Shown here piece by piece: positions 1 to 63,747 of a DNA stretch of 64,000 nucleotides. Under the pieces are notes generated by a model. That model was not told the origin of the DNA and did no database searches. It worked only from the letters and a program-made list of their open reading frames with translations. The stretch is from the NCBI GenBank assembly GCA_963924565.1, contig OZ004609.1, positions 18,910,001-18,974,000 on the forward strand. Reading direction: 5' to 3'. Both the position numbers and the translations under genes were made by a program. The stretch comes from Ascidiella aspersa (taxonomy: Eukaryota). Each line of letters begins with the position of its first letter. Position 1 is the first letter of the stretch.

Positions 1-542
1 AAATTAAGGCATGCCCTGGTCCAATGAGAGGGTTTACAGGGTTCTGTGCAATAATGCAACATATTTTATATATATTTACAGATAAATTATGTTACCACAT
101 CCTTCCTTTTGAGTTTAAATTATTATGATATAAATGACGCTTGTGTACTGTAATAGGTAAAGAGATTGCTGATTTTAACATTTGTGCACTGTTTTTTTTA
201 TTTCTTTCTCGGAAAAATTGTGGTGTTTGCCATCATCCCGAAAAAGTTCCGCCAAATAAAAAGTTTTAAAACTATCATCCACTTTATGCAGAGGGTAAAT
301 AATAAGGCTTTTGTATTTTTTTTTAATAGTTTTCGTCCTAAATGCATGGGTTGTTAAGAATCAATCAGCCTAGACCCCCACTTACAAAGTTAATAAACAT
401 ACTGATCCACTGCCTGGTGTACCATAATTGTTTACTTTACCTAATAATGTTACCCTTTAACAGATGTCACAAATATTGGAGTGATTTTGATTTGTACTTT
501 GATGCCTATATACAGAATTTATAAATTATTTAAATGTTTCAG

Positions 543-30322: not shown

Positions 30323-31975
30323 GTCTAAACTCTAAATTGTTAAATTTTCAACGCGTCAATATATTAAAAAATTTTTGCGTGAGCCCATACTGCTTTGTGA
30401 ATACAGCTAAAATGCATATCAGCACCGAAATTAAAGAATAGTGTACATACACTAAATATAAGTAATTAAAAAGCTGCTCTTGTTTCTTGTTCTGCTTGTG
30501 CGGCCCGTTGGCATATCGTACTTAAATTATCTCTTGTGGCTCTCAGTAAGACTTAAGTTGAAAACCCCTGCTCTAAAGACCAAAATCTACCAACTCAAAC
30601 CAAACACAAACGACTTGAATATTTACAGCTTGTGAGTTAACCAGTTAAAGAGTTCGCAACAAAACCATGGACCAAACTAGCACTATAACATATAAGACGT
30701 TTTTTCATTTTTATTTACACAGAAAATTTAACTGACCAAAATCATTTTTACACAGAAATTTAAATGACCAAAATCCTAACCAAATATACAAAAAATTACT
30801 GTGATTCGCATTATGGGCTCAACGGTTGAAAACCCCGAACCTGTGGTTAACGGGGTCCATTCGTTTTTGCCTTAAAAATAGCATATTTTATTATTGTCAC
30901 AATTAGCGGACAAAACTTTCATTGCCATTTTATAGGGAATCACATACATGGGTAAAAAAACACTGTCATAATAAACTGTTTCGGCTATGATTTCTCGAGT
31001 TTCCCCCCTTCGAACAGAGATATTTACCGCATGGGATAGCTGGTCTACGTCAGTCATTTAATTTAAGTACTTCATTTGTACGGTGGTATTGTTTGCTTTT
31101 ATATTTATATGTGCACGATAAGTTAAACGTGTTCATTGCCGATAACACCCATACTTTTCCGTTGGTCTATATTGTCATATGCCCACAAAAACCGATTTAT
31201 CTAATATAAAAGAGCTTATCGTTGATTGTAATAAAGGCTTATAATCGTCATTAGTCCTTCGCATCAAAGGGTAAACCTGAAAGCATGCTTAAGCAGCAAG
31301 TTTTAAATCATTTTAAAGTTGTGCACAACGTTTCGCTTTCTTGGTCAGGTAAGATGGCATTAGCGCAATTAGTACGTATCGAACAGCTGATTTTTTTTCA
31401 GTTGCACCCCACTTGCTCTTTACAAGAATTCAGTAAAACCTAGTTAAAGTCATGTGTCAGTCTTGCCTCACTCTGTTCGACGGCCATGTCGTGTTAACAA
31501 AGCAACGTATACCCTTTTCGCTAGTCATAATACGCTGAATGAATAAAGGGAGGAGTGCCGATCTCACTCTTTCTGCAAGAATGAGTTTAAATAAAGCCGC
31601 TCAGGCATTGACAACCAAACACAGAAATCAGTTTAGGTAAAAACTATGGAACGCAAAATATATATTTGGTCTAATCATACTCTTAGCTTTGTCGAATGAC
31701 GTATTTAAATGAAAGATTAATTATGGTGGTATTTGCATCATTTCGTTATCCAGTTATTTACTCATAGCAAAGAGATTATAACCTTATTGCTCATAGAAAA
31801 CTAAACGTAAAATTAGCCAAGCGTATCTGAAAAAACACTTCACATTCGTTGAATTTGTGGGAGTGTAGTTTACGTTTGTTTATCATTGGTGATGTGGCGT
31901 ATTCTTCCACGTTGAGGTTTACAAAAATTCACCAAATGCAAATTGAGTTGCAGTATATAAAATAGACAATTAACG

Positions 31976-33193
31976 ATGTCTCCTGTTTATCAAATAGAGG
32001 GAACTGTACAAAACTACTCTTGGGGAAAAGTGGGAAGCAGTAGTAAAGTGGCGCAACTTCTCTGCGGGAAAAATATTGAAGAAGATAAGCCGTATGCCGA
32101 ATTGTGGATGGGAACTCATCCGAAAGGCCCAAGTACCTTTACTAAGGATGGATCTTCTCTTGCAGAGTTTATTGATAAAAACCGTGAGGTACTTGGAAGC
32201 AAAGTTAAAAATCAATTCGGCAATCTACCTTACCTATTTAAAGTGTTAAGTGTAGCCAGGTCTCTGTCAATTCAGGCACATCCTGACAAGAAATTGGCTG
32301 AAAAGTTACATACTGAAAGGCCTGATGTATACAAAGATGCTAACCACAAACCAGAAATGGCGATTGCATTGACTCGATTTGAGGCACTTTGTGGATTTCG
32401 ACCTGTGAAAGAAATTTTAGATTTTTTCGAAGCTGTCCCAGAATTAGCTAATGTTATTGGTAAAGAATCCATTGCATTGTTAAAAAATGATATCCACCAA
32501 AAGTCTGGTGTAAGTGATGGTTTAAAATCTTGCTTTTCGAATTTGATATTGTGTGAAAAAGCTAAACTAGTACAGCAACTAAATAGTTTAATCACTCGCG
32601 TAAAGAAAATGGTTTCAAATGAAACTGATACAAGCAATTTAAATGGTGAACTTCTCCTTCGATTATACTCTCAATTTCCAGATGATGTTGGCTGCTTTGT
32701 TGTTTACTTTTTAAATCACATTTTTCTTGAACCTGGCGAAGCCTTGTTTTTAGCAGCCAATGTACCACATGCCTATTTGTCTGGTGATTGTATTGAATGT
32801 ATGGCTTGCTCTGATAATGTTGTAAGAGCTGGCTTGACTCCAAAACTGGTGGATGCAGAAACACTTTGCAGTATGTTAAAATATGTGCCGTCAACAATAG
32901 AAGGCCAAAAATTTAAACCAGTTACAACGGGTGACCAATATGAACTACAGTACAATCCACCTATAGATGACTTTGCTGTATTTTGTGTTAAAATACCTGC
33001 TGGCACAGCAAATTATGCATTATCCCTGAGTGAAAGTGCTAGCATTGTTCTAGTGGTTTCTGGTAAAGCTACATTAGCTAACAATGAAGAAAGCATTATA
33101 AGTGGAAATATTTTCTTCATACCTGCACAACAAACTTTGGAGATGTCAACTGCTACAGAAGTTCTTATCTATCGAGCAACATGCATTTTTTAG
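31976..33193 (+). CDS. MPI: Mannose-6-phosphate isomerase (type I PMI), intronless CDS, 405 aa
   Basis: QNYSWGKVG, PYAELWMGTHPKGPS, LPYLFKVLSV..SLSIQAHPDK, YKDANHKPEMAIALT, PHAYLSGDCIECMACSDNVVRAGLTPK. Confidence 0.97.
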   Translation: MSPVYQIEGTVQNYSWGKVGSSSKVAQLLCGKNIEEDKPYAELWMGTHPKGPSTFTKDGSSLAEFIDKNREVLGSKVKNQFGNLPYLFKVLSVARSLSIQAHPDKKLAEKLHTERPDVYKDANHKPEMAIALTRFEALCGFRPVKEILDFFEAVPELANVIGKESIALLKNDIHQKSGVSDGLKSCFSNLILCEKAKLVQQLNSLITRVKKMVSNETDTSNLNGELLLRLYSQFPDDVGCFVVYFLNHIFLEPGEALFLAANVPHAYLSGDCIECMACSDNVVRAGLTPKLVDAETLCSMLKYVPSTIEGQKFKPVTTGDQYELQYNPPIDDFAVFCVKIPAGTANYALSLSESASIVLVVSGKATLANNEESIISGNIFFIPAQQTLEMSTATEVLIYRATCIF

Positions 33194-36270: not shown

Positions 36271-37290
36271 TTAATAGGGCCTTACACTAGCGTATGCCCC
36301 AGGACCGCGTGGTAGTATTATTTTTTGGATATTTATTTCGGCTTTGATTTTATTAAGCCATTTATCTTCAAAAATATCCAAAAGACTGACTAGCGGCATT
36401 TGTACAAATACAACAACAAAACATTGGTGTAAGTGCGGCTTTCTTTCCAATGTGGTAGTATGTTGATCTGCATAGTGCCGTAAGAGCGCAGCTCGGTCGT
36501 TGTTGGCCGAATAATCAAACGTCTTCCAAGTTGCTCGACGAGCATTCCAACGTGTGGAAAACTTGGTTTTAGTTTGACCGACATACTGCTTGTCACACTT
36601 CTTGCAGGTGGCCACATAAATGCCGTAATGGCTACACGTCAAATTTTGACATAGCTGCACACTACCTGTCGGTGTACTTAAAACAGTAGTGTGTGGCACC
36701 ATGGTTTGGTGTTTGCAAAAATTGCCACAAAGAGCACATTTAACATATGGACTCGAAGAACCAATTTTATCGCCAGTCTGCATCCTCGACATTCCTTTAA
36801 AATTTGTGAGGAAATGTGCCAATGTGGGCGGTCTTTTGTATGCGATGCAGGCAAAGGGCTACATTGCTTTATCCTTTTGGGTTAACGAAATGCGCGATGG
36901 AAAAGCGGTAGCCCAAACAATGCGATGGTGAGGCTTAGTTTTAACTTTCGGCCCAAAACGTTCTTTCCAAAACACTGCGACGTGAAATACGTCCTCCGTC
37001 ATTCCCCGATGAAAACCAGAAACGATACATTTTTGCTTCAACCTGTTAAGGTTGTTTTTGTAGTCCACATCCAATTCGTTTAAGCGGCGCATGTGAATCG
37101 CTTCACCAAAAACAATAGATTTAAAAACTAATGGTGGGTGATGTGACGAACCATTGAGAAAATGACGCTCGCTTGCCGTTGGTTTATAATCTCTTGTAAT
37201 AAAACCTTTTGGTGAGCTTTTTGTCACAATATGATTAACATCGAGAAATTCCAAAGCCTTTCTTTCTTCTGCAGTTGATACCTTTCTAAA
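36271..37290 (-). mobile_element. Penelope-like retroelement fragment (Neptune-type): RT C-terminus + GIY-YIG endonuclease, frameshifted
   Basis: EFLDV..YKPTA..FLNGSSHHPPLVFKSIVFGEAIHMRR (36859-37254). Cys linker KCALCGNFCKH then GIYVATCKKCDKQYVGQT..FSTRWN..EDKWLNKI (36271-36822). The 3' end abuts a MITE-like sequence. Confidence 0.9.
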
Positions 37291-37677
37291 CGTAAGTTAG
37301 AGGCCGTAATGTTTAAATCCTATTTGAAGAGAACTTTGTATCTGTCTCGTGTTGTCAGTTCTTGTAGATTTTTTGAAAAAAACATGAACTACAATTTTAT
37401 CAAGTGGCCCCTCATAAGAAGTTTTAGGAGAAGGGGCCTCCCCATAGTTAACACAAAATGTGATGAATGTTATTGTTATTCTTCTTTTATAAACATGAAT
37501 AAGATACAAGGTACGGGGAAATATAAAATATTACTGCTTTCGACCTGTGGGATGTAGCAATGATAGTTGTTATATTATCTTTTGTTTAGTATTATTTTCG
37601 TAAATCAGCCGTGAAATACCAGCCCTGTCAAGCGTGACAAAACAATCCCGTTAAATTTTTCGGGCTGTTGCTCCTGG

Positions 37678-38295
37678 ATGATCTGGAAAAGCATTTTTTG
37701 CTGCAGTTGGAAATTTGCAGCTTTCAGTGGCCTGGCGTGCGTGTTGATTAGCTACTTTATACATTTGTGCATCGTTGAAGAAGTTAATATGGCAGCGGAA
37801 CCGAAAGACATTTACGGTTTTAATGTAACCGACGTTGACGGCAACGAGGTCGTGCTGTCCAAATACTCTGGACTGGTGTGCCTGATAGTGAATGTTGCAT
37901 CCCAATGAGGTTTAACCTCCTCGAACTATGCCCAGTTTGGGCCATTGCTGGAGAAGTACTCACAACAAGGACTGCGAATCCTTGCTTTCCCCTGCAATCA
38001 GTTCAACAACCAAGAACCTAAAAGCAATGCTGAAATTAAAGATTTTGCCCATAATCAGCAAAAAGCCCAGGTTGACCTATTTTCCAAAGTAGACGTTAAT
38101 GGAGACACTGCGATACCACTCTATAAATATCTAAAATCAACTAAGAATGGTTCTGGTTTTCTTACAAACAAAATAAAGTGGAACTTCACAAAGTTTCTTA
38201 TTGACAGAAAAGGACAAGTGCGAAAGAGGTTTAGTCCCACCAGCTCTCCGTCATCCATAAGTAAAGACATAGAAAAGTTGCTGAATGAAAAGTAA
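37678..38295 (+). CDS. GPX4: Phospholipid-hydroperoxide glutathione peroxidase (GPx4-like) selenoprotein, intronless
   Basis: ORFs 37678-37908 and 37945-38295 are one frame joined by TGA 37906-37908 at the catalytic site (IVNVASQ-U-GLT). Also LRILAFPCNQF..QEP and IKWNFTKFLIDRKG; SECIS downstream. Alternative start at 37789 (MAAEPKD). Confidence 0.93.
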
Positions 38296-38925: not shown

Positions 38926-41900
38926 ATGGAAGTTTTATCAGCTTCTCAGGAACGCATTGCAGAATTCCGCAAGAAACTAGATAAACCCCTGAATGGTATA
39001 TAACGTTATTATTTCCATAGTTCTTTTTAAATTTACTATATACTGTAGGTTGTAGGTTGTTAGCTTATAGGTCTTTTACAGTTTATGTATTTTGTCACCA
39101 TTATTTAATTAGTTCTAAAGTATCATTGAATTGTGTAAATTTTATTTTTAACAGATTGCAGAAATGAACTGGATGAACGAGATTTTGATCGCATCATGAA
39201 TGAAGACACTTATACTGCGCTATTTATTCAGTGGACACGATCTGAGACAGAAGCTGTTGATTTGGCAGTAAAATGTCTCAAGTGGAGAAAAATTAATGCA
39301 GTAAATGGTAGGCAACACGGAATTTGTACTTATCTTATATTCCCTAATATTTATAAAGAAATATTTTATTATATTTTTGTTGCTCTCTTAGATATTTCCA
39401 TTGAAAGTATTGGTGAAGAAACTTTCAAACAGGGATATCTGTTTCTTCTTGGTAAAGATACAGATGGCGGACGTGTGTGTAAGTCTTAATCAATTGCAAG
39501 TAATTTTCATATTTCCCTTAAATCTTCTTTTAACAAAACAGATTTCTATAAATAAACTTATATACATAAAAACTAAACCATGTATTTGCAGTAATCTTAT
39601 TACAATTTGCTGTTAAGTTACCTGGGCCTGGAGTATCTGCTTTGATAGTTCAGTAAATTTAATCAGAAATCTTTCTCTCTACTCAGTCTTTTTCTTTGCA
39701 TTTCCTCTCCACAGTACACCTACAAGCTGGCAGGATGAAGAAGGCAGACAAAGAGAAGAACACGCAGCTGCTTATTTTCTGGCTTGAGAGGATTCAACGG
39801 AAAGAACCTGGGAAGCATGTTTCCTTCATCCTGGACACCACTGGAAGTGGAATTGGCAACAGCGACATGGGATTCACCAAATTTATAATAGAATGTTTTA
39901 CCAGCTATTTCCCATGCATGCTACGTAAGTATATACCAACTTACAATTTAGGTATGTGTCACACTTAAGTTGCAATTTTTTCTTGAGGACTCTCACCTTT
40001 CTTGGTTGCGGTTTCAATTAGACAAATTAAATATATATCTTTAGTGGAGTGTTGCACCAAAATTATAATCATTTTTTTATGGGTACATCACAAATCAAGA
40101 ACGACTGTCTCATACACTTAAGTTTCTTCACACGATGAACAATATCACTTTGCAGACAGCATAAGTTGGTTCACGCCACGTAATGTAGAGTAACGGCATA
40201 AGTATATAGACCAAGTAACCTTTAAAATCGCGCCAGACAAAATGAAATCAATAACTTTTTTTATTTTTGGCTCTCAACAATGACGACATTCGGTAAAAGG
40301 TGAATTTTAATTCGAAAGCGTAATTGTTCGCAAAGTGTCAGTTACGCGTTTGGAAATTACGAGGTTAATAATTCACCACAGCTATTTTCGCAATGCCGTC
40401 CGTGTCCAGCGCCGCGTGTGGCTTTCGTAGCCTCTCCAGACAACACTCCTGCCTTGCACAAGCAGCACAACAACATCTCTTATTGATTGCCATTCAGAGG
40501 TTTTCGAGGAAGGTGGTGACAGGCGGTGCCACCTTCGTAGAGAAGTGTTATTTTTACGTGTTCAAGAATGACAAGCTTAATTGTCGTCTTGGGTTATTCC
40601 AGTCACGCTGCCGCACGCGCACAAAGATATTTGGATTACAGCTGCCCGAAACATGCATGCAGTCCGCCCATTGAACAGCTTCCGCTTTCAAACAGAGTTA
40701 CCCTACGTATCCTGTACAGTCCTCATTCCAATTATGCACTGTATATATCGAAATTAGGACTATTAGTCACTCGACTGTTTTCCCCATTGAGCGACTTTTT
40801 GCCTATACGGTGGACACTTCGTTAAACAAACGCCAATTTGTAATTAATTAAATTAGATTTTGCAGGTCTAAACGACCGTTTTTGTTCAATATGTGTGGTA
40901 TACCAGGCTGTTGTGTGCTAAAGATCTCCCAATCCCGCTGTATTATCATCTCATAATACATACAAGTGTTCTTGAAAATATTTAATTTGAAGGGTTTGGC
41001 CTGCAAAAAATTAATTGCGTTCGAACATTCACGAAGTATTGCCGTGGGTGCAACCATTCATCATTGGTGTATTGTGACGTCAATACGAAACTCAACCCAA
41101 CCCTTTTAATTAGCCACAATTAGGACTACTTTATAAGGTTGCCTTTTGTTTCAGGAATGTGACCAATCTAGCCTAATCTACCACGTGGCGATATCCAATA
41201 GGTTACTAATTAAAAGTTTGAGAATGATTAATAAAGCATACGTTTGTCTATATTTGCCATCCTTTTTGTAAATATGTGCGCTATATTAAAGCTGAATTAG
41301 AATTATAAGTATACCTTTTTTAAAGCATTGAGTCCTATCATGGTGTGCATTACCACGCCTTAAAATCAAAAAGCGCTGTATTTAATATGGTGCACATTAC
41401 TCTGTTTAGAGTATCACTAAATTAAATTATATTGTACAGCTGTCTTCTTATTTATTTATTTGTTCTTATTTTGTAGTCGGGGCTGGCATTTGTCAAATGC
41501 CGATTTTACTTTTTTGGGGTCGGTCGTTATGCATGATGACATAAACCGGCTATAAAAAGGGAAGTAGCCTGCATAATAGCCGTGACTAACTGTAAAAAAC
41601 GGACACTTACTTAGCGTACCTGTGAACGCCACAAAAATCAATTCCTCTTTCCATCTACGAAATATTGATTTTATGTTTTGCCATGACATGAATAATGGTT
41701 TGGAGCATTTTCATTCATCTCGTCTCCTGATAAAACGACACCCGAAAACCCCCGAGAGCCGCTGGCATACTGAGAAAAAGTAAATTTAGCTGCCCAAAAA
41801 ATCTTAAAACACCTCGAAATGTCTTGTGTCCGAAGGCCTTCATTTGCTGATTTTATTGAGTTTACCGCCTGGTGGTAACAAGCAACATAATAGTTCTAAA

Positions 41901-44900
41901 TGCATAATTCACATTATTTCAAAGTCTGCTTATCTACATTTTAAAAACCATCTTGTTGTTAAATATCAGCTAAACTTTTTCTACTACTGAAAAACATACT
42001 CATTTGGTCACACCATAAAGGAAATATGTGAAACTGCTAGTTTGCCGAAAAAAAATAAACAGTTATTTTCAGGACGGACACTTGTGTACAACCTGCCGTC
42101 GATCCTGAACGCGATGTGGAAGCTCATTAGTAAAATGTTGTCCAAGGATCAAAGTGACGTCACGGTGCTGTGTGGCAAGTCGGACATCGTGAAATACGTG
42201 AGCGTCGAAAACTTGCCAGTCGAGATGGGCGGCCAGGTTGGTTCTTTCTAATTTCGGTAACGGTAGATATGATCAGGATTACATCGCAAAGAATTTAGTT
42301 GACTTGTTTTACCAAAATATCCCACACTGACCAAATGCTTTGCGTTTTACTCGCTTAGTGAGAGTTATACAAAGAACAAAATATTTTCTTACTTCCTTTA
42401 TTCATGCGGCAACTGTGAAGCCACTTGTAGTCACTATACCCCATTTAAAATGTGAGCTAAACTAGTTACATTTTACCATACTTTTTTTTAAGCCGTTGAA
42501 AGCCCTATATTCTACAACCATTACACTTTATTTGTAGAACTAATAGATGGAAACGTAAGAATTATATCAGAAAGCTATATTTTGTTGTGAATTAAGGAAA
42601 CCTTTTCGCTTTCAAATAAACGCACTGGTGGAAATCTTTAAAGGGATAAAACTAACGGGAAATCTTAAATAAATACTGTGAAAAAGAACCAGTGGCTTTG
42701 TGAAGGCGAATGCTTGACTTTGGTGATATGTCAATCTTTACCACTCATCGGTTCTATATAGTCGCGCTTTGATAAAATAGTTTAGTGACGAAAGGCTGTG
42801 CGTTAAACCGTAAATGTATAGCTGTTGATTTTTGTGTTTTACCACTTAAAAAGAAGTAATAAACTATAACACAATGCACCTATCTCTCCTGTTAAGGCGT
42901 TGTCGAATTTACATTACATTAATAGAAACACTTAATTTAGGTGGTAACTTCAAATGGGGGTGTAAATTAAAGTAAAAAAATAAGAAAATATGTAGGTACT
43001 GTATAATGAAAAACAACAAATATACCCAACGTATGTTGGGCTAAAACAAATTTAGTGGTAGAAATAATAATGCTTGTTTTTTTTCGTCTGCTATTAAGTA
43101 TTCTTTGTTTAGTTTTTGATTCATATTTTTGTCTTATGGGCTTCCACTTTTAAAAACCAAACAACCATTTTCATGATTTAAATCTTCACGACAACACGGA
43201 AATAAAGTTGTTTCATTTATTTTTATATTTTTAGTTGCTTTTTGTTTCTCTTTTAATTTTATGAATCAAATACAGCCTGGTGAAAACATATAGATTGTAA
43301 ATCTTAAATAATAAATTTAGCTCAGGGCTATCTTCAGTCGCATGCCCAGTGCTCATTAATGCCCATTAAGTAAAAATAGGCCGGTTGGTATTAATGCCCA
43401 TTAAGTAAAAATAGGCCGGTTAGTAAAATAAGGCCGGTTAGTATTCTGCCTGTGTATATGCACTGTTTATTATAGTCCGATATAGTTCCAAAGGTACACA
43501 GTGGCAAAGCCTACCCGAATGACCAAACATTTAATAAAATTGTGGCCTAATTTTATATAAAAAAACTAAACAAACCTAAAAAGTAAAATAATTGCTAACG
43601 TTTCTTCTGTATAAAAGAAACTATTAATTGATATACGTTATAATTACTAATAAATCTAGGTTTCTGGCCGTCGGGCATTACCACTTTCGATATGGTAGCC
43701 TAATGTAAACATCCTTCTGTATGAATGTCTGAAGTATATAGTTTCTTTTTAAAGATACATTGGCTATCAGGAAAAGCATTTTTGGGCGCCGTTTGTAAAA
43801 AAACTGAAATCAACTGCATTATTTGGAGTTAATCGTAAATTGAAATTCATTGTGGTGGCGCTGTAGAGCCAATCTTTTCCGCTTTTTAGCAAACATCATC
43901 CAGTTTAGGGACAAAATTGTTTAAAATGATACACTTGTAACAGTAATGCCAGGGAAAAAACGGTTAACATTAAGGTTAAACGGTAAATCTTATCCAAATA
44001 AATACGTATAAACCTTTAGTTAAAGAGTGACATAATGTGCTTAATAGCGCATTTTAGGTGAACAAGGGGCACTGTTCTCAAAACACTGGGAAATTCGTGA
44101 CGGAATATTGGATTACAAAATGTCGAGAAAATGGCCAATTGGCCTGTTTTACGTCATTGGTTTAACTCAACACCTCGATTTTTTTTTGGTCGAGATAGTG
44201 GTTGTGTATATGGCCGGATAACCTGATAACTAATGTGCCCCAACACGATAAATGTTCCCCCATTACTTCGCTTTGCTCGTGCGGATCACGTTTTTTATCC
44301 AATATAGATTTTTCTGAGATCTCATCCCCTGTTACACGCCCAATGAAAACAGCGCCTGTCAAGACGTCGGATAAGGATTCACAGTCCACCGACCGCGTCA
44401 CTGTTTTTGTGTCTTGACCTGTCGGGAATGTCACAATACGCTGTATTTTGTACACATTGGCGCGTTTTATTGCTCGACACTTCCTCCCGCTTCTGTAATC
44501 CGATCACGAATGTCGAACCCGATCCGCCTCGAGTTTCATTTCCATTTTCGTCTCGGCGCACATTTAAAAGGACCAATTGACGCAAAATTGGAATACATTC
44601 GTGATCGTCTCCGCAATACAATGTCGCCGAGGAAACTGTTTAGCTTCGGGTGAACGCGGTTGGCATAGCAGCCCCAGCAACTAGTCCCCGAAATAGCAGT
44701 CGCTCTCATAGACCCACTACTTGATAATTACATGGACCGCTACACCTTTTTCGTGTCAGGACATCTCTGGCTACGCGACAATCTTTTTAAAACAAAAACT
44801 ATTTGGGACACGCCCACAATACACCCTTATTACGATTTAGGGGTACTGGCAAGCCAAATAACGTGTGTCGTCTACACGGTGGTGCTGTCTCCTTACCGCA

Positions 44901-46445
44901 AAATAACCCAAAACGCCATATAATTTAAAGCAAATGTTTGCAAAATCAGCAAAAGTAACTCTTTACCAGAAAAAATAATTAGCCGCGTGAAAATCGTTTT
45001 TTTATGTTATCTAGCAAAATAATTTGGTATAAATACCAGATAATTATGCCAACCTAATGCAATTTTACGCCTGCTTAACTTTTGCTTCCGCTAAGACGGT
45101 TTTTGTGTTGTCCGATTTAAAGACCCCCTTTGCCTGTTAAATAACCCCTTGAATAATACGTGACCGGGTGTAGTATAACTTGTGTGACCGCGAAACCCCG
45201 TTGGTGGATATAATTGGCTTTGTTGCGGAAACTTTGCAATTTCGATCCTTTTACCCTGGTGCTTCCATGGGTCTCGGACCTTTTCTCCGTTCATCCCAAA
45301 GAAAACAAACCCCGAAAGTAGATACCATCTAGTCCATTAGGGCCCCCCAGCGTGCCATTGGTCCTTGGTTAAAGACACGTAATAGTACGTGATGTTAAAC
45401 CGCTGGTTTGACGTGAGTAAAGATTGTTTTGTTTTGTTTGCGTCATCCGCCTTCACGCTCCGACGCTCTGGGAAACATTCAAAACACCTTAAAACAGTTG
45501 GTCGTTTGTTTGGCGTTGAGGTCAACCACATCGAAAGCAGTCGGCTGAAATCGTTCAGTTTCCGTTCTCACTCAGCGCCAACCACATTGGAATTTTCGCA
45601 AACTCGCTTACATAACCCCTCACTTGCGAAATCACCAACCGTAGCAGTAAACAAGGGTTGTAAAATTTGGTTGCTTGCTTTAAAGATGCACTCGTTTGCG
45701 AAAATTGAAGCTCACGTATATGGTTGAACTTTGTTTGAAAGTGCATTATCTCAACTCTCCAGAAAGCAATTGCAATAGGCATCATATTTCGTACGCGTGT
45801 CACCTTCCCTACATTCTGAGCACGAAACAGACATACGGAGTATATACAAACTGCGAATAATGCCAGTATGCCAAGTTGAAGATAAATTCTATCAGCAGTT
45901 TTTGTATTTTACACAGTTGAAAGCTTCCCGTTTTAAAGTAACAAAGAATGGGCCATTTTATCACAAAAAGCTAAATGCACCATTTGGCGCAACAATTGGG
46001 GTAGCTACAGTAGACAAAATCTAAGGCAATTTAACCAGCGATAATATATTATTGATTGGTGTGATACAACGCGAAGTCAACATGTTTGAACAACTACAAG
46101 ATGTTATAGTTAGATGGACCACTTGACGAAGGTTGTGCGGGTCATAAAAATTGATGTCTTGTGCCCAACTTCTGGCCTGCGTCTCGTAGAGGGTGCGGAA
46201 TTTGATTTAAAAGACTGTTCTCATTTTATTTATGACTCGTGACGACTTAAGCTAAGCAAAATTTGCTGATAACAATTTCTAAGTTTGATCGGCTCATTGC
46301 TGTAAAAATTTAAATAATATTGCCGTTTCACTTTTCTTTGTAATTGCCTTGAATGTTTGGGATAAAATTTACCTTTTTACTAATTTGTTTTCAGATTGAC
46401 TACAAGTATTCCTATCCCCCCTTTCCCGATGATCTCGACGCGTAG
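38926..46445 (+). CDS. MOSPD2-like protein with CRAL-TRIO (Sec14) domain only, 244 aa
   Basis: Exons 38926-38995, 39155-39307, 39392-39478, 39715-39924, 42073-42236, 46395-46445 join in phase. LDERDFDRI, LKWRK, GKDTDG, FWLER, DMGFTKFIIECFTSYFP, LVYNLPSILNAMWKLI, LPVEMGGQIDYKYSYPP match the MOSPD2 N-terminal half. Stop TAG 46443-46445. Confidence 0.85.
43355..43443. repeat. Short tandem duplication
   Basis: TTAATGCCCATTAAGTAAAAATAGGCCGGTT twice plus a partial third unit. Confidence 0.8.
45300..45800 (-). pseudogene. Possible decayed hAT transposase fragment in last intron of the CRAL-TRIO gene
   Basis: FPERRSVK..QRFNITYYYVSL resembles the FPEKR..FKV.VYY..LD segment of ZMYM1-type hAT transposases; many frameshifts. 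Confidence 0.35.
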
Positions 46446-49400
46446 ACAAAAATCCCCGAGAATAATGCCCTTAAGCGACATCACATTATTTGTAGCCTTA
46501 TCGTCGTACTTTTAGACGTAATTTGTTTTACTGTGTTGTGTTACACGTGTTCCATCAATCCTGCCTGACTAAATTATTTTATTTTTGTACCTGTGTACCC
46601 CGTATGCAATAGCGAGCTCAATAGCGCATTTTTGTTTTAAATTGTGCGTATGTTACTTGTTACAACGTCGATCAATGAGTACTAAATTGTTGTTTTGGAA
46701 TTCGTCACTTGTTTTCATGTTGATTTTAACACGACACCTTGGCTGTAAAAAGTTTTGCCAAAATTAATGTATGAATTGCAAACTTTCAATGAGCAAATCT
46801 ACCTGTACTGGTATTTTGTGCTACCTAATCAAGTATATGTATTTATTTTTGTAACTTCTATTCAAATATCTAATTTTATTAGCCATGTTTTAGTTTTGAT
46901 GCTCAACATAACTTTAAGTGCACTTTTTTCATAATATACACGCAAATTAAATGTTTTAAATGGACAACCTTGTGAAGCGTATTAAACCTGCTCCGAAATT
47001 TAAGGGTAGTGTAATTGTGAAAAGCATTGTTAAAGTTTGGAGTGTTTAGTGTCACAAATGTTTTTAAAATACCGAAATCGCAGGCGGCACTTTTGTTTAT
47101 ATAATATAATAGGTCTGTATTGATGCCTAAAGTTATTTTTTCTTGCATAGTCCTGGCTTAGTAGTTGTTGTTATATGATTTTTGTAAAGAAACCGACAAA
47201 TATTAAAACTAGAAAACATTTTTTTAGATATATCAGAGAAAACGGTTGCAACACAATGAAGTGTTTGCCAACCTGAATGTAACTTTTTTCGGTTGCCTTT
47301 ATGTTCGTTGCCTTAGTAGCGGCTTGTGATGTCATGCATTCAGGGTCGGTAAAACGAACGCATATCATACAGAAAATCCGGTCGTTCAATTCGTTTGCCC
47401 TTTGTTATAGATCGCGCGACATCCCGTCTCCAACCAACCCATGTAATTTCCTCTGCCTATCGACGCCCTACGTCCGCAAATTTCACTTCACGTGGATCAC
47501 ATTCCATCAGTTGCGTGACGCACGAGTCTTTATTTCTACTTGTAGAACAACGCGGCTCCGTTTCTCTAATAAACCTTTGACACTTCTATGCCGCACTTTT
47601 ATTCTTTTTAATGTAAACCAAGGAGGAAATTCCGGGCGTCTCTTTTGTTGGGCGATGCTGGATGGGTGTGTTCAGCTCCTCCCTCAAAATGTGGCAGTTG
47701 GTCGAAGGCATGAAAACGCCTGCATTTTGTCACCATGTGCAGAAAATAACGTATATTTGTGCTCAGTTGAACAAAAAACGATTGGAATGCGCGCTGAAAG
47801 TTTTTTCTACAACTTACGTATAAAAATGTTTTTTAACCCTTATAATTTGCGTTGGGTATACTTTGAAATATCTATTGACTTTACTTCGGAAGATCTTGTC
47901 TGCTTAAAACTGGTCTGAACTCGATTTTATTCACGCTCTACAACGGGTAATGCGAGGTTAAATTAAGCTCAGGAGTTTCCTTACATCACATCGAAAATTT
48001 CTTTCGAAAACGGTATTTTCTCCACATTCATAAAAGTAACGTGGTTCGTTCTCTCGACTAAAAATTGTCCACGTGTTTATAGTAATAATATATTTTCCTT
48101 TGTAGCCAGGTAACTGACGTTTAAACTCCTGTTGGTAGGAGATCGTTATCGACGAGACTATTCCGTATAGCCTCTGGTACCGTGACGTATCCCCGTTAAA
48201 AGAGCTCAGATTGCACACAGCCAGACGTCCTTCCCGCTTGTTGGTAAGGAGTCCTAATTTTATAAATTGACAACTGCGAAAGAATGCCAAACGAAAACTT
48301 TCCTGACGCCGAAAATAGACTATTGGGCGACCTTCGGGGAAACTCGAGATCACGAGTATAGGCCTGAAGCAAGCAGGAATTTGTCGACGTGGTTACAGCA
48401 ATACGTAATTCCCTAAACAAACACGATTTTCTTCGATTTATTTGAGCAGTATACTTTCTTAAGGGGCATGTCAGACCCCGCATACCTGATTGCACATTTG
48501 CTACAAATAGTGCAATGAGACTTCAATCTCGTTTTGTGAGATAGGCGCTACATTTAAGCACAACGTAAGTTATTTCGCGTGAAATAAAGTTTCCTGGTCC
48601 TTATTGGATTTGGTATGTTACATGCCGTAATTAATAAGTAAGGTAATAACTGTCATGTGCACTGTGGCTCTGTGTATTTGTATTTTCCGCAGATATGATA
48701 AGATTTGAGTTTCGAAAATTCCCTTTTGCCAACATATAAATGTGATATATTTCTTGAAACTCCGACAGAAGGGTACACAAATACTATTCACATCAATGAA
48801 ATACAGAATCAAACATAAATACAAGACCATATACTCTCTTTTTATTCGTACCATAGCTGAATGCTATAGCCTTTGTGATAAAATTGCTTTCGTTGCCAAC
48901 ATGATTCGTGAAGTTAATAATTTTGGTTAAAAGAATTTCAGTTTGTACATTGCAAATATGCGAAAATAAATTTAGATTTTTTTGAAATATCTTATGAAAA
49001 AAGCATTATCAATTTGGTTGAAAAAGTCGAAAAATATTCATAATTTGCTGCCCCTTTACTTCCCTACGATTAAAATATCAAAATATATATAGCACATAAC
49101 AGCCTTCAGTGACATTTTTTTTAATATTGTTTCGTTGCCTCGCATCACTACTTGAAGAACAAGTGCTGTTAAACACTTTAATTTTCCTGTTACCCAACCC
49201 CAACGTGACGACATGTGTGTCTAAAATCATCGGGTGTAGGAATATCACTTCGTTGAGAGCATCTATAATAGGTAACATGGTACTTGCTGCCTTGAGTTAT
49301 CTCCAGTCGATCAGAATTACGCTATTTTGTTTACATAAGTCTCTTGCTGCAGGTTTGTATTATACGATCTTGTTTCTGTACTAAACAAGGTTTAGTGGTT

Positions 49401-50562
49401 TCTTTGGCGTAAATTTAAACACATATAAAATGTCGACAATTTTTTGCATTTACCAAGCTGTCTTGCGGAAACCTTATTGGCATTTAAATGACGGAATTTA
49501 CTGAAAATACATTAAGTAATTGTTTTGTTTATTTTAGTTCTATTCTTTTATACTCATTAAAATAAACAAACAATGACATACTGCCATCAAAAATAATAAA
49601 TCGACCGTTTCCTGAGCCTATTGGTTAAATAATTTAAAAAAAGGTTTTATCATAAAAACTTCTTTTCGCCGTACGTATGATTTACAGAGGAGACACCCCA
49701 TTTATTCATTAATGGTTTATAGTTTGTTGAAGCTGATGGCCACAGATAAATAAAATGATAGTGAAAAAACAAATAAATATTATGCAACCAATAGCTGTTT
49801 TTCCTAAACTATTTTTTTTTTATGTTGAAGGAGTCATATTTTGTGCTTTGTAAAACCGGAGCTGATGTTGTAAACTAGATGAACGTAGATGTCGCAAAGA
49901 AATAAAAAAAATTAGAATACTGTTTTTTTTTAATGTTTTGTTTTCAAGCGATTTAAAAAGGATTGAAACATTGGCAATTTTTATTTTATAAAATTTTGCG
50001 GAACAACTGAAATTTTTGAAATTTTGCTCGATGCTTCTTTTTTTACAAATACCACTACACCCTTTGTTTGCAACTTTACAGATGTTTATATGCAAATCCT
50101 GTGATCTATATGGTGTTTTACTAAGGTAAATATCGGTTTTACCATATCAAAGATGTGCAGTAATTTTTCTATACAATATTTTATTTTTTTAACAGGTAAA
50201 ATTTACACAAATCAAAAACATATAAAAAACGACGTGTTTTTTGTTTAATAAAGTGTATATAAATAAATCCACTGTGAATAAAAACATCACTGTAACTTAC
50301 GACGCTAAATTTACATTGTAAAGAGTGCCCAGCAGCTTCGGGCAGCAGCGTAGATATTGACTTACCGTCCCTGTGTATACGTGAGCATATATGCGAATAG
50401 CAACAGAATGTAATAAATAAAGTCGAACACAGTGAAACCTGAACAAAACACAGCGAAAAACGTAAACCGACGTCGCCGTTCCTCGTCGACCAAGTAAATG
50501 TGGCGAAACGCAACGCCTCGGCAAAGGGCTACTTTAACGAACGCGACCGCCGCATTAGAAAT

Positions 50563-51128
50563 TTAGGACCCCAGTGGGTTGTTTTCATACGATCTCGTGT
50601 AGCATTTCGAACGTGCAGAAGTATGTTTTGGGTGCTTCGATCGACAACTCTTTAACTCGTGATGCATGCGGCACATCCAGTTGTACTCCCGGGCGTCGCA
50701 GGTGTGCTTGCAGCATCTGGCCGCCTGCCAATGGTATGGACCGGATTCCCTGTCCGGCAAGTTGTGTGACGCCGTAACTAAAAAACGCACAAATGCTCGT
50801 TAAACAATAATTTCACAACAATTACGATCCATTGAATAACGCTGTTAAACCAAAAATAAAAAAATAAAAAAAAAACATTTTAAAACTTACGACTTGCTCT
50901 GTAAAAGGGGAAGGGGAAATTGAAAGTTCTGTCCTTGCAGGCCCACCGCAGGAAATGGACCGCTTTTCGTCCACAGTGCTTTTCGCGATTGACGACCTGT
51001 CGGTAATATTTCAATCTGTGGGAAACGGCAGCGTCGGTCCTGGATGCTGAAAGCTGCAGAAGCAAAATGGCGAATCCCAACGTTAGGCAGGCAAAGAATG
51101 AAGTCTTGTCGGTTGCGTTGCAAAGCAT
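50563..51128 (-). CDS. Divergent insulin/IGF/relaxin-family prepropeptide, 150 aa
   Basis: Exon 51128-50891 has a signal peptide and B-chain CGRKAVHFLRWAC (C-x11-C). Phase-1 intron 50890-50778 (GTAAGT..TTTTAG). Exon 50777-50563 has A-chain CCKHTCDAREYNWMC (CC-x3-C-x8-C) and a basic tail with two more Cys. Confidence 0.88.
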
Positions 51129-51397
51129 ATTCTTTAGTGTATAACTTTTCTACTGTTTGAACGAGAAAATTCTAAAAACGTATAAAACAGATTAGTTTTA
51201 TGCTTTACAACAGAATTTAAAAGTATAGACAATACATTTAAGTCAGATTTTATTCTTGCGTCTGTCTGTTGCTGATTTGACTAGCGTGCTATGCAGTATC
51301 TCGAACTGCGAAATACCAATTGCGCCCAAGAAGCATCAGTGATGCGAACATGGCAACCTCCGCAGCATTATGAGCCTGTCAGGCGCCGTGTGCCGTA

Positions 51398-51404
51398 TTT
51401 TATA
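51398..51404 (-). promoter_or_regulatory. Candidate TATA box of the insulin-like gene
   Basis: TATAAAA on the minus strand in GC-rich context, ~270 nt upstream of the ATG. A branch-point/TTTTTAG acceptor lies at ~51173. Confidence 0.5.
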
Positions 51405-54400
51405 AGCTCTCAGTACGCACTGTCTTTCTCGCGTGTTCACTGGATCTGCACATTCTCTTAGTGCTCGTACACTTCAAATAATGTCGGGCAAGGCGCGCGT
51501 TTGCCTTCATCAGATTCCCTGTTATTTAAGCAGAGTGTACTAAAGCTTTGCGTGTTCTAAAGCCAACCGTGTATCTATCATCTGGGCATCCGCAGAACGG
51601 TTTTAAGATCAACCAGTTAGCCCCGTGTAATGAGAAGGTTGCGATCATCGTCGCGGTGGTAGCGTAATCCCGCGCGCGATATAAATAGACCGCAAATCAT
51701 GGATTAAGTAGTTTGCCGACCTGCTATATCAGGACGTCTTAGGCATCATTAGGCGGCGATTAAACATTTCGTTACAACATGGTCCGCCTAACAACTTTGC
51801 ATTGGGGCTGGATATGCCAGCTAATTTCGGTTAATTACCTGAAAACCCCATCACGTGCGCCGTTCGCTCGGCGACAGCAGTAAGATCACAGACGAACGTT
51901 TCCTTATCCACCGCAAATCAAGTGTGCACATAAATACAAATTCGGCACATTTTCTGTATTGCCGTCTGTGCATCTCGCCACTACAATTTCGTTTCGTCCA
52001 CTACAACTATCGGCGCCTGTTTGTCAAGTCATTCCCAGTAAATCACTGAAAAGTCGCAACACGCCGTTTACTCACGCCACCTTATAAATCCAACCTGTTT
52101 AAAACCTGTTATTTATAAGCCAATAGTGCTAACGTGGAAAAAGGCTGGAGCTCGTCAGGAGAGAAGTTGCTGACGTCATGCTTGCATCATACTCCCGCCA
52201 CGCGGTAATCCGTTCGATATCGCAGCCGAGGAAGCGCGCTTATTGGTAATTGGTTGGTTCATATGGGGTGTAAAGGGGGTGTGGGCATTCAGTACATCCA
52301 GTAATTTTTTCAAAAATCTACGGCCTTTTCGCCTTTGTTTGATTAAACGGAGTAGGGTGTGCCTTAGGGATGTTGTTATGTGCGATCGGATTTCAAACGT
52401 TTCGTGTAAATCCAAATAGGCCGAGAGAACACACACGCCAGAATCAGGTGACACTCTTGAGTAACTTGGTCAAACAAAAGAACCTTTCGATAAAGTCATG
52501 AGAGCACAAGCAAATTCCCCACGCGTAGTAACTCGCGCTGTAGTCAATGGTACTCGCAACGTTTGTTATGTACACATCGCAAGTCGCTGAAGGCATATTT
52601 TTCCGCTCACGTCATTTCACCTATACTATCGCCACCCTTTGGCACACTACTTCTATCCTATTAACTCCATTCAATCTACCGCGTCGTACTTAGTGGCGGA
52701 ACCCTTTCAGCGGTACGCGAACGGTTTTTGTTGTTGCCGCGTGGGGAGCGCTGTAGTATGGTACCGCCACGCTTGTTGTTGTTTCTGAATGGCGGAGAAA
52801 CGTTACCTGATGCCACAACTTCACGGGAGGCGGGAAATCGCTCTCTCGGAAACGAAGACTTTTGGGCGATCGATTGATAAATGAGCCTTTGTGAGTGGTT
52901 TGAACTGCGCGAACTCACCTCGTACTTGCGTGAACGAATCCAGCTAAAAAGACGCCCCCAATTTTGATGTTTCAAGTGGTTGCGGTCAAAGTTGAGAAAA
53001 TTTGCTGATAATTGGCAATCTGACTGACACTTTACGAGGTCGAATCGCTGATAGTAGATTGCGCACAATGCCTGTAGCATTTAATCCGCAATTAAGTCAT
53101 GATGGCCATTCTAGAAGTTTTGGTTTTAACACGAATTTCTGGAAGACCCGAAACGTTAGCAATATCGATTGTCGTCCATAAATTGTTGGCAAACATTCCA
53201 ACAAGAAGATAATTACCGACTGAACTCTATCTAAATGTACACAAAATAAAGCCAACAGCTTTCTGTACCAACAGACTTAAACGTCGAAATAGCTCACAGA
53301 AATTTCTTAGCAAAGGTAAATTGCTTTAGTGTACTACGCAAACTTGACCGGTTTTAGATAATAGCGTGCCACTTGTTCACAATTTAATGCGTTGTCGAAT
53401 GGAAACATTTAGGGATTTTTTAACGGTTATCGTAACGGCAGTTAATGTCTCGAGTTTCGGCCGTTTCAGCCGACGGCCAAAACGTCAGTTTAAAGAGAAA
53501 ATGTCTCGGTTTAGCGCGTCTCTGTCCTTCATTTACCAACGAGACTTTTGAAAAGAAAAAAAAAAATTCGCCAAAAATTGGAGTGAAATGTAAGCAAGCA
53601 AACGGCCACAGGCAGTCAGCGTGATGGGCTGTGTAATTAATCACACATATCGATGTATGATGGCGATAGCGAATTCAAGCGCCGTCCAGGATCGCAATTA
53701 AACAAGCGTCGAGGAATTCCCCTGGCAGCGCATTTGTGGCCGAAAAGTGCACTGTTTTTCGAGTGACTCACATTGGTCTGTGACGCAATCACTGGTGGTT
53801 GGCACCTGCAAGCATTGCGGGCAAGTCAGTCACACTGATTGAGAAGTGCTATCTCTCGGGTAATCTCGTCGCCTCGGCGACGTCGAATTTTCAGAATCCC
53901 TTTCCGTGACGCCATGGGAAACGCGCTACTATATACACTACAGTCAACCGGCTGATGCAACTCGCCAACAGAAACGCTTTCATTGAAAACTGTCCGTCGT
54001 ATTCGTCGCGTTATAATCCACTTAAAACATTTGAACTAAAGCGTTTAAAACAATTTTGCATTTATTTTCAGATGTTTAACATTGAAAGCCTTTATAATCA
54101 ATTTTGCGACACATATCCTTTCAGTTTTGTTATCAAATTCACAAAAAAATGAAATGTTTAAAAGATGTACATACTTTAAAAAACTATTCTGTCCGACGGC
54201 AAAAAACAATACCTGCAGTTGTCACAACACGGCAAAAAATTATAAAAGAATCGGAAAACCAGTAAACCACGATTATTTATTTCTTGCATAGTATGCTCAG
54301 TATAACGCCTGAAAAATGTCAACGCGCTCGGCTTGACCTTACGTGAACTAATTATATCGTCAGTGGTAAAAAGTGAGAACGGGCCTGACCTTTTTGATGG

Positions 54401-62750: not shown

Positions 62751-63090
62751 AATATTTAAAACTTTTGCAATTTGAACTTTTAGAAGCATTACATAAAAGT
62801 GTTAAATGGTTCCCGTTGGTAAACTACTACGTCATCCACTGTGCGTATGGAGGGGGGACGAGGTAAACGCCATATTTTTTTCCAACTTAAAAAAATATAC
62901 CATTGTGGCGTACATGGTTTCGCGTCGGCGCGCGCTTAGCGAAGCGTGCAATTTGCCTTTTTTGAGTTGTGCTTTATAATCGAGTGTTGTGTTGCACTGA
63001 CCCCCTTATTCGATCTACGCATCTCGCAATAAAGCATCAACCGCTTCACTGGTGACCCCGCAACTTTAAAACGTTCTTTTGAAGTCGAAG

Positions 63091-63747
63091 ATGGAAGCTG
63101 AACACGCCGTTTCGACCAAGCTTCGTACGTTCTGGCCAACACAGCCACGTGTTTGGCTGCAGCAGGTAGAGGCGCAGTTTGCTATTAAGAAAATTGTTGA
63201 AGATAAAACTAAGTTCTATTACGTAGTTTCTGCGCTCGACCAAGGAACTGCAGCACGTTTAATTGACCTGCTGGAGCGCCCGCCGGCCGAAGGCAAGTAC
63301 GACGCAATTAAGCAACGCTTGCTGCAGTCATTTACGCTTTCAAAGCAAGAACGAGCAGCGCAGCTTTTAAACAAGCCTCCTTTGGGCGACAAGAAACCCT
63401 CTGTTTTAATGGACGAGATGCTTGCCCTACTCGGAGACCACCGTTCTTGTTTTCTTTTTGAACATTTGTTTTTGCAGCACATGCCTGAGGATATCCGGTT
63501 AATATTGGCTCACGAGGATACCACAGATCTTCGTCGATTGGCTCTGAAGGCAGACATTTTATAGCTTTCTCGCAGTAGCAACAACGAGTTTGCTGTAAGC
63601 AAGGTGCAACGCGGTAAGCAATTTCGAAATAACAGCGATAAAACTACTGGTATATTATGTTTCTACCATAGACGCTTTGGAGCAGACGCACGTCAATGCA
63701 GCCCACCGTGTTCTTTTCAGGGAAACGACAAGGCCGGCTGCCTGTGA
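63091..63747 (+). pseudogene. Gypsy gag with premature TAG at 63562-63564
   Basis: FWPTQPRVWLQQVEAQF..TKFYYVVSALD..LGDKKPSVLMDEM..LALKADIL*. The same frame resumes to CFYHRRFGADARQCSPPCSFQGN and TGA 63745-63747. Confidence 0.85.

Follow-up and report, generated by a model that had tools for sequence, protein, structure and literature searches.

Gene structure and neighbourhood

The window is a stretch of 64,000 nucleotides of the ascidian Ascidiella aspersa and contains, on its minus strand, a gene of two coding exons that is almost certainly a genuine member of the insulin superfamily (Table 1). Joined by script, the exons form an open reading frame of 150 aa, to which the first exon (51128-50891) contributes 238 nt. 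Hydropathy and alignment point to a signal peptide followed by B, C and A in that order; hydropathy peaks at 2.2-2.6 over residues 13-27, and the N-termini of the orthologues described below are likewise hydrophobic. Ten cysteines are encoded, at residues 3 and 14 of the signal region and at 52, 64, 101, 102, 106, 115, 124 and 138 of the mature part. The core six follow the insulin spacing, C-x11-C and CC-x3-C-x8-C, and this arrangement, which an earlier note on the locus had called canonical, holds in the window protein as well as in the Phallusia and Ciona sequences. The same note had described a phase-1 intron in the C-region, an A-domain that starts with WQAARCC and a basic tail with two additional cysteines, all of which are borne out; the 35-aa tail contains eight Lys or Arg residues and two Asp or Glu. 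The mature protein has a pI of 9.9 and the sole basic pair is RK at residues 54-55, which lies within the B helix.

Table 1. Features of the insulin-family gene and of its surroundings, in positions of the window
Feature	Position	Strand	Basis and remarks
Coding exon 1: signal peptide, N-terminal extension, B-domain, start of C-domain	50891..51128	-	X3 contigs and X4 reads; alignment to Phallusia and Ciona orthologues
Predicted signal peptide, residues 1-33	51030..51128	-	Cleavage inferred from hydropathy and small residues
Basic N-terminal extension, 12 aa before B1	50994..51029	-	Similar in Phallusia, lacking in Ciona
B-domain B1-B30, Cys52 (B7) and Cys64 (B19)	50904..50993	-	Numbering table; IGF alignments
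GT..AG intron, 113 nt, phase 1, inside C-domain	50778..50890	-	Precisely skipped in X3 record 3
C-domain, 20 aa, split by intron, no basic pair here	50731..50903	-	20-21 aa in orthologues
Coding exon 2: rest of C-domain, A-domain, tail, stop	50563..50777	-	Query that retrieved the orthologues
A-domain A1-A20, Cys101, 102, 106 and 115	50671..50730	-	Gly-Ile-Val and Tyr A19 replaced
Basic tail, 35 aa, Cys124 (50646-50644) and Cys138 (50604-50602)	50566..50670	-	Predicted helix-loop-helix hairpin
3' untranslated region, to limit of X3 contig	49602..50562	-	AATAAA at 50185, 49985, 49706 and 49533
Unspliced transcribed stretch 5' of ATG	51129..53540	- (contigs do not show strand)	TATA-like boxes at 51404 and 52117
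ANKLE2	503-3323	+	
WD40 protein	19719-21515	+	
Mannose-6-phosphate isomerase (MPI), intronless	31961-33190	+	68% to Phallusia, the nearest, with Clavelina and Ciona next; places the organism among the phlebobranch ascidians
GIY-YIG fragment	36274-37296	-	Transposon remnant
Glutathione peroxidase	37700-38292	+	
Spliced gene, last exon 46392-47506	39139-47506	+	CRAL-TRIO-like by eye, without Pfam support
DUF7041 gag-like ORF	63070-63561	+	Transposon remnant

The GIY-YIG fragment that lies among the neighbouring genes is presumably Penelope-like. The frequency with which such motifs arise by chance was gauged in 200 simulated windows of equal composition, where a B motif preceded an A motif by no more than 5 kb on one strand 4 times, a figure that scores the motif pair alone, before a signal peptide or a splice is required. 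A chance pair is thus unlikely yet possible, and it is the splice together with the orthologues that settles the question and rules out the reading of the locus as an artefact.

Transcript evidence

Four sequencing runs carry the species label (X1 to X4), with X3 taken as contigs and X4 as raw reads sampled to about 6%. Record 3 of X3 (1279 bases, depth 2207) joins 50891-50993 to 49602-50777 and skips 50890-50778 exactly, giving the junction 50891/50777 that the earlier note had expected, on the evidence of one contig of one run whose type is not on record. X3 behaves like RNA in that its depth drops to zero over intergenic stretches and the neighbouring plus-strand gene is spliced as well, a loose end at 46392 matching an exon at 42207 that is followed by a GT donor. 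In X4, 12 reads fall on the exons, and their orientation is that of a minus-strand RNA, opposite to the reads from the plus-strand neighbour; no splice joint is listed among them, in a sample of about 6% of the run in which reads are cut at a repeat within the intron. X1 has nothing at the locus and X2 only upstream pieces. The depth of 2207 in X3 compares with at most 81 for the other long contigs within 20 kb, and the contrast between X3 and X4 suggests expression that is restricted by tissue or stage, bearing in mind that contig depth is a poor measure and that the tissues of the runs are not on record. Three coding variants are present in X3, two of them synonymous (one at 50602, in the Cys138 codon) and the third exchanging Ala34 for Ser.

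Record 5 of X3 is unspliced and spans 51030-53540 at a mean depth of 350. The stretch of about 2.5 kb that it covers upstream of the ATG may belong to a long leader, to an outron removed by trans-splicing or to a transcript of its own. The sequence of this region contains 38 upstream ATGs within 51129-53600 and a 17-base indel at 51540.

Orthologues and conservation

A phmmer search of 1.84 billion proteins with exon 2 returned six matches at E<=0.001, three of which are orthologues, namely LOC100177666 of Phallusia mammillata (158 aa), LOC100177666 of Ciona intestinalis (145 aa, two alleles), both labelled 'uncharacterized', and a metagenome fragment of 71 aa. The other three (P0123, P0127 and P0128, of which P0127 was inspected) were dropped as repeat proteins, each long and containing 4-10 repeated stretches. 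Identity of the spliced protein amounts to 46% with the Phallusia protein over 132 aa and to 35% with the Ciona protein over 99 aa, and around the A-domain 12-15 of 23 residues are identical across the three species. Reciprocally, the Ciona protein matches only this locus in the A. aspersa genome (G000). The search for tunicate relatives that the earlier note had proposed thus yields orthologues in Phallusia and Ciona, both unnamed. The Ciona orthologue and Ciona MPI are located on records of equal size (6,976,749 bases), which we take to be chromosome 3, and in the window MPI lies 18 kb from the peptide gene, which is consistent with kept linkage.

The locus is single copy: neither its two exons, nor the Ciona protein, nor two exons of an insulin gene on contig C8 led to a further paralogue when used as queries against the genome. 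Weak matches on C6 and near 8.75 Mb of C3 were set aside as signal-like or antisense chance matches. Near 8.75 Mb of C3 (L021:1075-1698, minus strand) there is also a 208-aa ORF with a signal-like start, about ten cysteines and no Pfam match, possibly an unannotated secreted protein. A motif scan of the window, of 60 kb of flanking sequence and of 60 kb surrounding the C8 gene detected no insulin gene in tandem; an intron within the motif could hide one from such a scan. In word-index protein searches exon 1 had no match, and of the 1101 candidates for the family alignment only the three orthologues already named belonged to the family. None came from a stolidobranch, an aplousobranch or an appendicularian, although with this index such an absence counts for little.

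Pfam Insulin matches neither of the two exons nor, even over their full length, any of the four orthologues, and the Pfam scan of the genome missed the locus, in agreement with the earlier expectation that annotation could easily overlook it. It is because Pfam finds no insulin domain in the orthologues that they are labelled 'uncharacterized', and the PF00049 cut-off is a tool of annotation and not the definition of the superfamily. Of the HMM check that had been proposed earlier, the Pfam part thus misses the orthologues, whereas family profiles produce weak matches to DILP2 and IGF.

The positions that are invariant in the three species comprise Gly B8, Phe B14, Phe B24, Phe B26, Phe B28 and Phe B30 in the B-domain, Pro A-2, an aromatic residue at A-1, Gln A2, Lys A8 and Glu A15 in the C- and A-domains, and further Tyr A16 (aromatic throughout the family), Trp A18, Met A19 and His A23. 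The fourth cysteine pair is kept in all five family sequences, its first member always nine residues after A20 and its second 9-14 residues further. The net charge of the tail in these five is +6, +8, +11, +11 and +3, the lowest value being that of the JGI orthologue, in which the loop is shorter and less basic.

The cysteine pattern, the intron and the orthologues support the claim of a divergent insulin-family peptide made in the earlier note, but its statement that almost everything else departs from the family was too strong, as Gly B8, Val B12, Leu B15, Phe B24 and Phe B26 of the window protein match insulin and IGF. Its C-region does contain the intron, yet the first six residues assigned to it, those that follow Cys B19, align with the end of the IGF B-domain (B25-B30) and are therefore not C-peptide, which leaves a C-domain of about 20 aa. 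The absence of dibasic sites is true of this species and fails as a family trait, since the C-domain holds RK in Phallusia and RR together with a polymorphic KR in Ciona, the latter being KH in the second Ciona sequence. An Arg is present at C-domain position 13-14 in three of the four full-length sequences, and the domain has a constant length of 20-21 aa with some conserved residues. The basic extension that precedes the B-domain is likewise found here and in similar form in Phallusia, but not in Ciona.

Relation to the described Ciona genes

The gene appears to be a fourth beside the three INS-L genes described in Ciona. It is improbable that another name hides one of INS-L1 to -L3 (DQ538510, DQ643991 and DQ665317) or a fourth gene listed since, a case that would affect naming only. 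The identity was compared by accession, cluster membership and map position, which leaves some room for such a case, and a review may list an 'INS-L4'. However, both members of the 90% cluster of the Ciona protein (XP_002128503) are named only LOC100177666, and the UniProt entries of INS-L (Q0GRC2, Q0GQS5) differ from that of the Ciona orthologue (F6RUP4). INS-L1, -L2 and -L3 are all placed on chromosome 2 in the supplement of PMC8805411, and the available texts of a 2025 review and of a 2025 survey (PMC12796670) count three tunicate peptides. Neither the locus, nor its accessions, nor a Ciona INS-L4 is named in the literature searched, with subscription papers and most supplements outside its scope, and it is considered rather unlikely that the gene is already listed somewhere. 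What is new is a conserved, unannotated ascidian insulin-family lineage with a distinctive tail disulfide; there are precedents both for additional disulfides and for basic tails, so that the novelty is not one of category.

Predicted fold

The Phallusia orthologue was folded as a stand-in, with a six-row alignment. The model of its core reaches a pLDDT of 71.8 and a pTM of 0.58 (five models, 48-72) and places helices at 5-17, 48-59 and 63-74, which correspond to B, A1 and A2, with A1 predicted to begin three residues early. The best-predicted part of the full-length model is the tail hairpin, formed by helices 117-133 and 139-151 with a block pLDDT of 81-89 over residues 121-150, in which the two extra cysteines of Phallusia, 132 and 144, flank the loop.

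A search of PDB sequences with family profiles returned DILP2 and IGF chains only (2 of 2 and 4 of 4), with weak E-values of 0.25-3.4 and no relaxin among them. Foldseek with the core model puts a kinase first, at E 3.5, followed by mini-proinsulin in second and IGF-I in third place among 13 chains, all with E>3. Only two of these 13 chains exceed Z 2 upon realignment, IGF-I at 2.3 and mini-proinsulin at 2.1, the former with an rmsd of 3.1 over 45 aligned residues and with Cys6 of the model range-matched to residue 6 of the chain. A wider fold search gives 93 chains with Z>=2 and places INS-6 (Z 2.7) and mini-IGF-1 (Z 2.5) at ranks 12 and 31 of the 50 rows shown, where they have the highest identities (18 and 23%) and do not stand above the rest. 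The model of the full precursor matched nothing insulin-like in the fold searches, and relaxin chains are absent from every fold-search listing, which excludes nothing. In the Atlas, the feature search assigns the insulin family or clan to 10 of the 10 best family-bearing matches, with scores of 0.82-0.87 that count as leads only (below 0.9), and the structure search gives unrelated rows only, at TM<0.5. The structure prediction called for in the earlier note thus puts the B, A1 and A2 helices in place, but its fold matches do not rise above background. Sequence and gene anatomy indicate a probable insulin fold, to which the structure tools lend weak support.

Proposed mechanism

It is tentatively proposed, at somewhat less than an even chance, that the peptide is a single-chain factor of the IGF type with four disulfides, which is tethered locally by its basic helical hairpin and whose action as a ligand on the insulin receptor is weak or antagonistic. 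The signal peptide would be removed near residue 33, judging from hydropathy. The mature protein is predicted to adopt the three-helix insulin core with its usual three disulfides (52-102, 64-115 and 101-106), as the AlphaFold helices and the weak in-register matches to IGF-I suggest. In this species the C-domain would be kept and not excised, because it contains no basic pair and because the aromatic strip B24-B30 and the aromatic residue at A-1 are conserved. This favours the IGF-like single chain that the earlier note had foreseen, for this species; in view of the basic pairs in the orthologue C-domains, single-chain status may not be family-wide. The second A helix is predicted to extend into a hairpin that is closed by Cys124-Cys138 and has five Lys or Arg residues in its loop. 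It is surmised, in line with the matrix tethering that the earlier note had thought possible, that this loop binds acidic partners (sulfated glycans, IGF-binding proteins or LDLa repeats) and retains the peptide near its source.

The core, in turn, would touch the insulin receptor via B8, B12 and B24 but without the surface formed by A1-A3 and A19, and the loss of this surface would lead the peptide to tune and not to drive signalling by its conventional paralogues. The site-1 residues of insulin are given as GlyA1, IleA2, ValA3, TyrA19, GlyB8, LeuB11, ValB12 and PheB24 in the available text of PMC12796670; three of these eight are kept here, three in Phallusia, two in Ciona and five in the C8 paralogue. 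The loss of A1-A3 and A19 may also mean that the peptide does not bind the insulin receptor at all, and Phe B24 may be retained for folding instead.

The genome holds counterparts for such a role. Exons for the L1 domain of an insulin receptor are located on the same contig (G000:C3:17122350-17123210; L022:4353-5209), 1.84 Mb from the peptide gene, a linkage that may be due to chance. IGFBP domains give eight matches, six of which exceed the Pfam cut-off (C9:12.99-13.06 Mb, C8:20.3-21.3 Mb, C2 and C3). The only other insulin gene that Pfam detects in the genome is the one on C8 (C8:17718722-17721330; L007:8723 to L008:1330). According to a splice model without RNA check it has Gly-Ile at A1-A2, Leu B11, RGRR before the A-domain, a long cysteine-free tail and an intron within the A-domain, before the last cysteine, and it is 22% identical to the peptide. 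The C8 gene is of a conventional, IGF-like kind and likely an INS-L orthologue. On this model the animal possesses one conventional ligand or more, and a conventional site is probably retained in its receptor. Orthologues of the other Ciona INS-L genes were not found in the genome by a search that scores few candidates and therefore provides no gene count.

Alternative readings

A different receptor, which the earlier note had also considered, is conceivable, in that the peptide could be a ligand of an orphan GRL101-type LDLa-repeat GPCR, with the hairpin binding the LDLa repeats and the A-domain (Trp A18, His A23) activating the receptor, with or without residual binding to the insulin receptor. 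This is considered unlikely, though it is the strongest of the rivals, and the stricter version, in which a fourth ascidian insulin-family hormone has left the insulin receptor altogether and is a natural ligand of such a GPCR, docking via its stapled hairpin, is slightly less likely again. Across the peptide family the insulin-receptor surface is indeed replaced by other invariant residues. Veenstra posits a two-part ligand mode for GRL101 in which IGFs are bound via their basic tails (PMC8286064; PMC7357564, as far as their available texts go), but the pairing of GRL101 with IGF is itself a hypothesis there (PMC8286064). For Ciona, 14 orphan LDLa-repeat GPCRs with TM regions like those of relaxin receptors have been described (PMC2396169). 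Related loci number at least 121 in the A. aspersa genome (121 of 327 candidates scored), and the six that were scanned all combine LDLa with 7tm_1 and have RXFP1 as best PDB match. On the other hand none of these six gave an LRR match, whereas it is LRRs that bind the insulin core in relaxin-type receptors (PMC2396169), and a fast-duplicating family of about 120 genes would be more in keeping with sensing or immunity than with a lone hormone encoded once. The receptor class is present, but its size and the absent LRR matches argue against a simple pair of hormone and receptor. Were the pairing true, it would provide the first ligand for the orphan GRL101 class, and a GPCR-acting hormone of the insulin fold in the sister group of vertebrates despite the loss of RXFP/LGR3. 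The loci themselves are related to single-exon GPCR genes with 3-22 LDLa repeats and a 7TM region like that of relaxin receptors (e.g. L024:1313-4849, L026:972-5006, L030:2708-8140 and L034:3846-6689), and their number is far above the 14 reported for Ciona.

The remaining readings are less probable still. A Dilp7 type, which has a conserved A chain with CC-x4-C, was rejected: signal and B-domain share one exon here, without the phase-2 intron between them, and the extension is not conserved. That intron and a conserved F-domain are given as Dilp7 traits in the available text of PMC11863921. A classical two-chain hormone, its C-domain removed in part by convertases and the product stored in neuroendocrine or gut endocrine cells, would explain the basic pairs of the Ciona and Phallusia C-domains and the recurrent Arg; it is nevertheless unlikely, as no basic pair exists here, the Ciona KR is KH in the second sequence, and the domain is held at 20-21 aa with conserved residues, unlike a disposable C-peptide. 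A tunicate orthologue of gonadulin, dilp8 or relaxin with an RXFP/LGR3-type receptor and a reproductive role has very little probability; the earlier note had named a gonadulin/dilp8-like hormone as one of two options. It could account for the single phase-1 intron, as in relaxin and Dilp8 genes (PMC11863921), for a divergent sequence without Gly-Ile-Val, as described for gonadulins (PMC7357564), and for the early predicted start of the A1 helix. However, PMC11863921 reports that urochordates have lost RXFP/LGR3 and chordates LGR4, a phase-1 intron is shared by all of the superfamily (PMC8286064), and Phe B24 and B26 together with every PDB profile match, weak as these are, favour IGF and insulin over relaxin. 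The relaxin motif R-x3-R-x2-I/V (PMC551602) is absent from all three species. Its first Arg, pointed out in the earlier note, is literally there at B9 but is Glu in Phallusia and Ser in Ciona; not being conserved it carries no relaxin signal, and the partial motif was rejected. Just as remote is the co-option of the insulin scaffold for a cationic peptide that serves in defence or in the matrix and needs no receptor: the mature pI and the very high depth in one run are in keeping with it, but the gene is single copy and well conserved, unlike fast-duplicating defence peptides, and the conserved residues comprise the aromatic core and surface positions.

Ciona's three insulin-like genes serve as reference for the origin of insulin, IGF and relaxin at the base of the vertebrates, and a conserved fourth member with a new cysteine pattern alters the ascidian inventory. 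No physiological function is reported for the tunicate peptides in the available text of a 2025 review. The Ciona orthologue already has a gene id, and CRISPR, single-cell atlases and peptidomics are established for that model animal; the peptide offers a concrete test of the proposed engagement of LDLa-repeat GPCRs by basic IGF tails. More generally, whole insulin-family lineages can escape surveys that are based on Pfam.

Comparison with known systems

The closest likeness is to vertebrate IGF-I and IGF-II (PF00049), which share the order signal-B-C-A-tail, the six core cysteines, a short C-domain (uncleaved in IGF and predicted to be so here), Gly B8, Phe B24, an aromatic B26 and a basic C-terminal extension, and which provide the best, albeit weak, profile and fold matches. 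Unlike them, the peptide has A1-A3 and A19 replaced, a C-domain of 20 aa and a sequence below Pfam detection, and its 35-aa tail is encoded on the A-domain exon, contains two conserved cysteines and has no furin-type site. With Ciona INS-L1, -L2 and -L3 and the C8 paralogue it has in common the superfamily, the animal group and a phase-1 intron after the B-domain.

Fourth disulfides are found elsewhere, and in the nematode beta-type peptides the extra bond joins the B and A chains. Octinsulins, some multinsulins, decapod gonadulin 2 and the nematode beta-type show that such a bond arose repeatedly; octinsulins and multinsulins have KR sites (PMC8286064), a comparison made by description, alignments aside. 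In none of these eight-cysteine peptides, as described in the available text, is there a tail hairpin with both extra cysteines directly after A20. The long isoform of arthropod IGF comes nearest, in that it combines an insulin core with an Arg-rich C-terminal extension and an extra predicted disulfide (PMC7357564). By eye, though, its cysteines are mostly C-x-C, tens of residues after A20 and on a separate, alternatively spliced third exon, and many arthropod IGFs keep Gly-Ile/Val at A1-A2 (PMC7357564). The motif GTV-x-P-x-F/Y at the end of that long form (PMC7357564) is absent here, where the tail shares the exon of the A-domain, and the likeness of the tails is more plausibly due to convergence than to homology. 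Finally, relaxin, INSL3, Dilp8, gonadulin and the starfish RGP resemble the peptide in their divergent A-chain start and two coding exons, but differ from it in that the peptide lacks R-x3-R-x2-I/V, keeps B24-B26 and carries a long basic tail.
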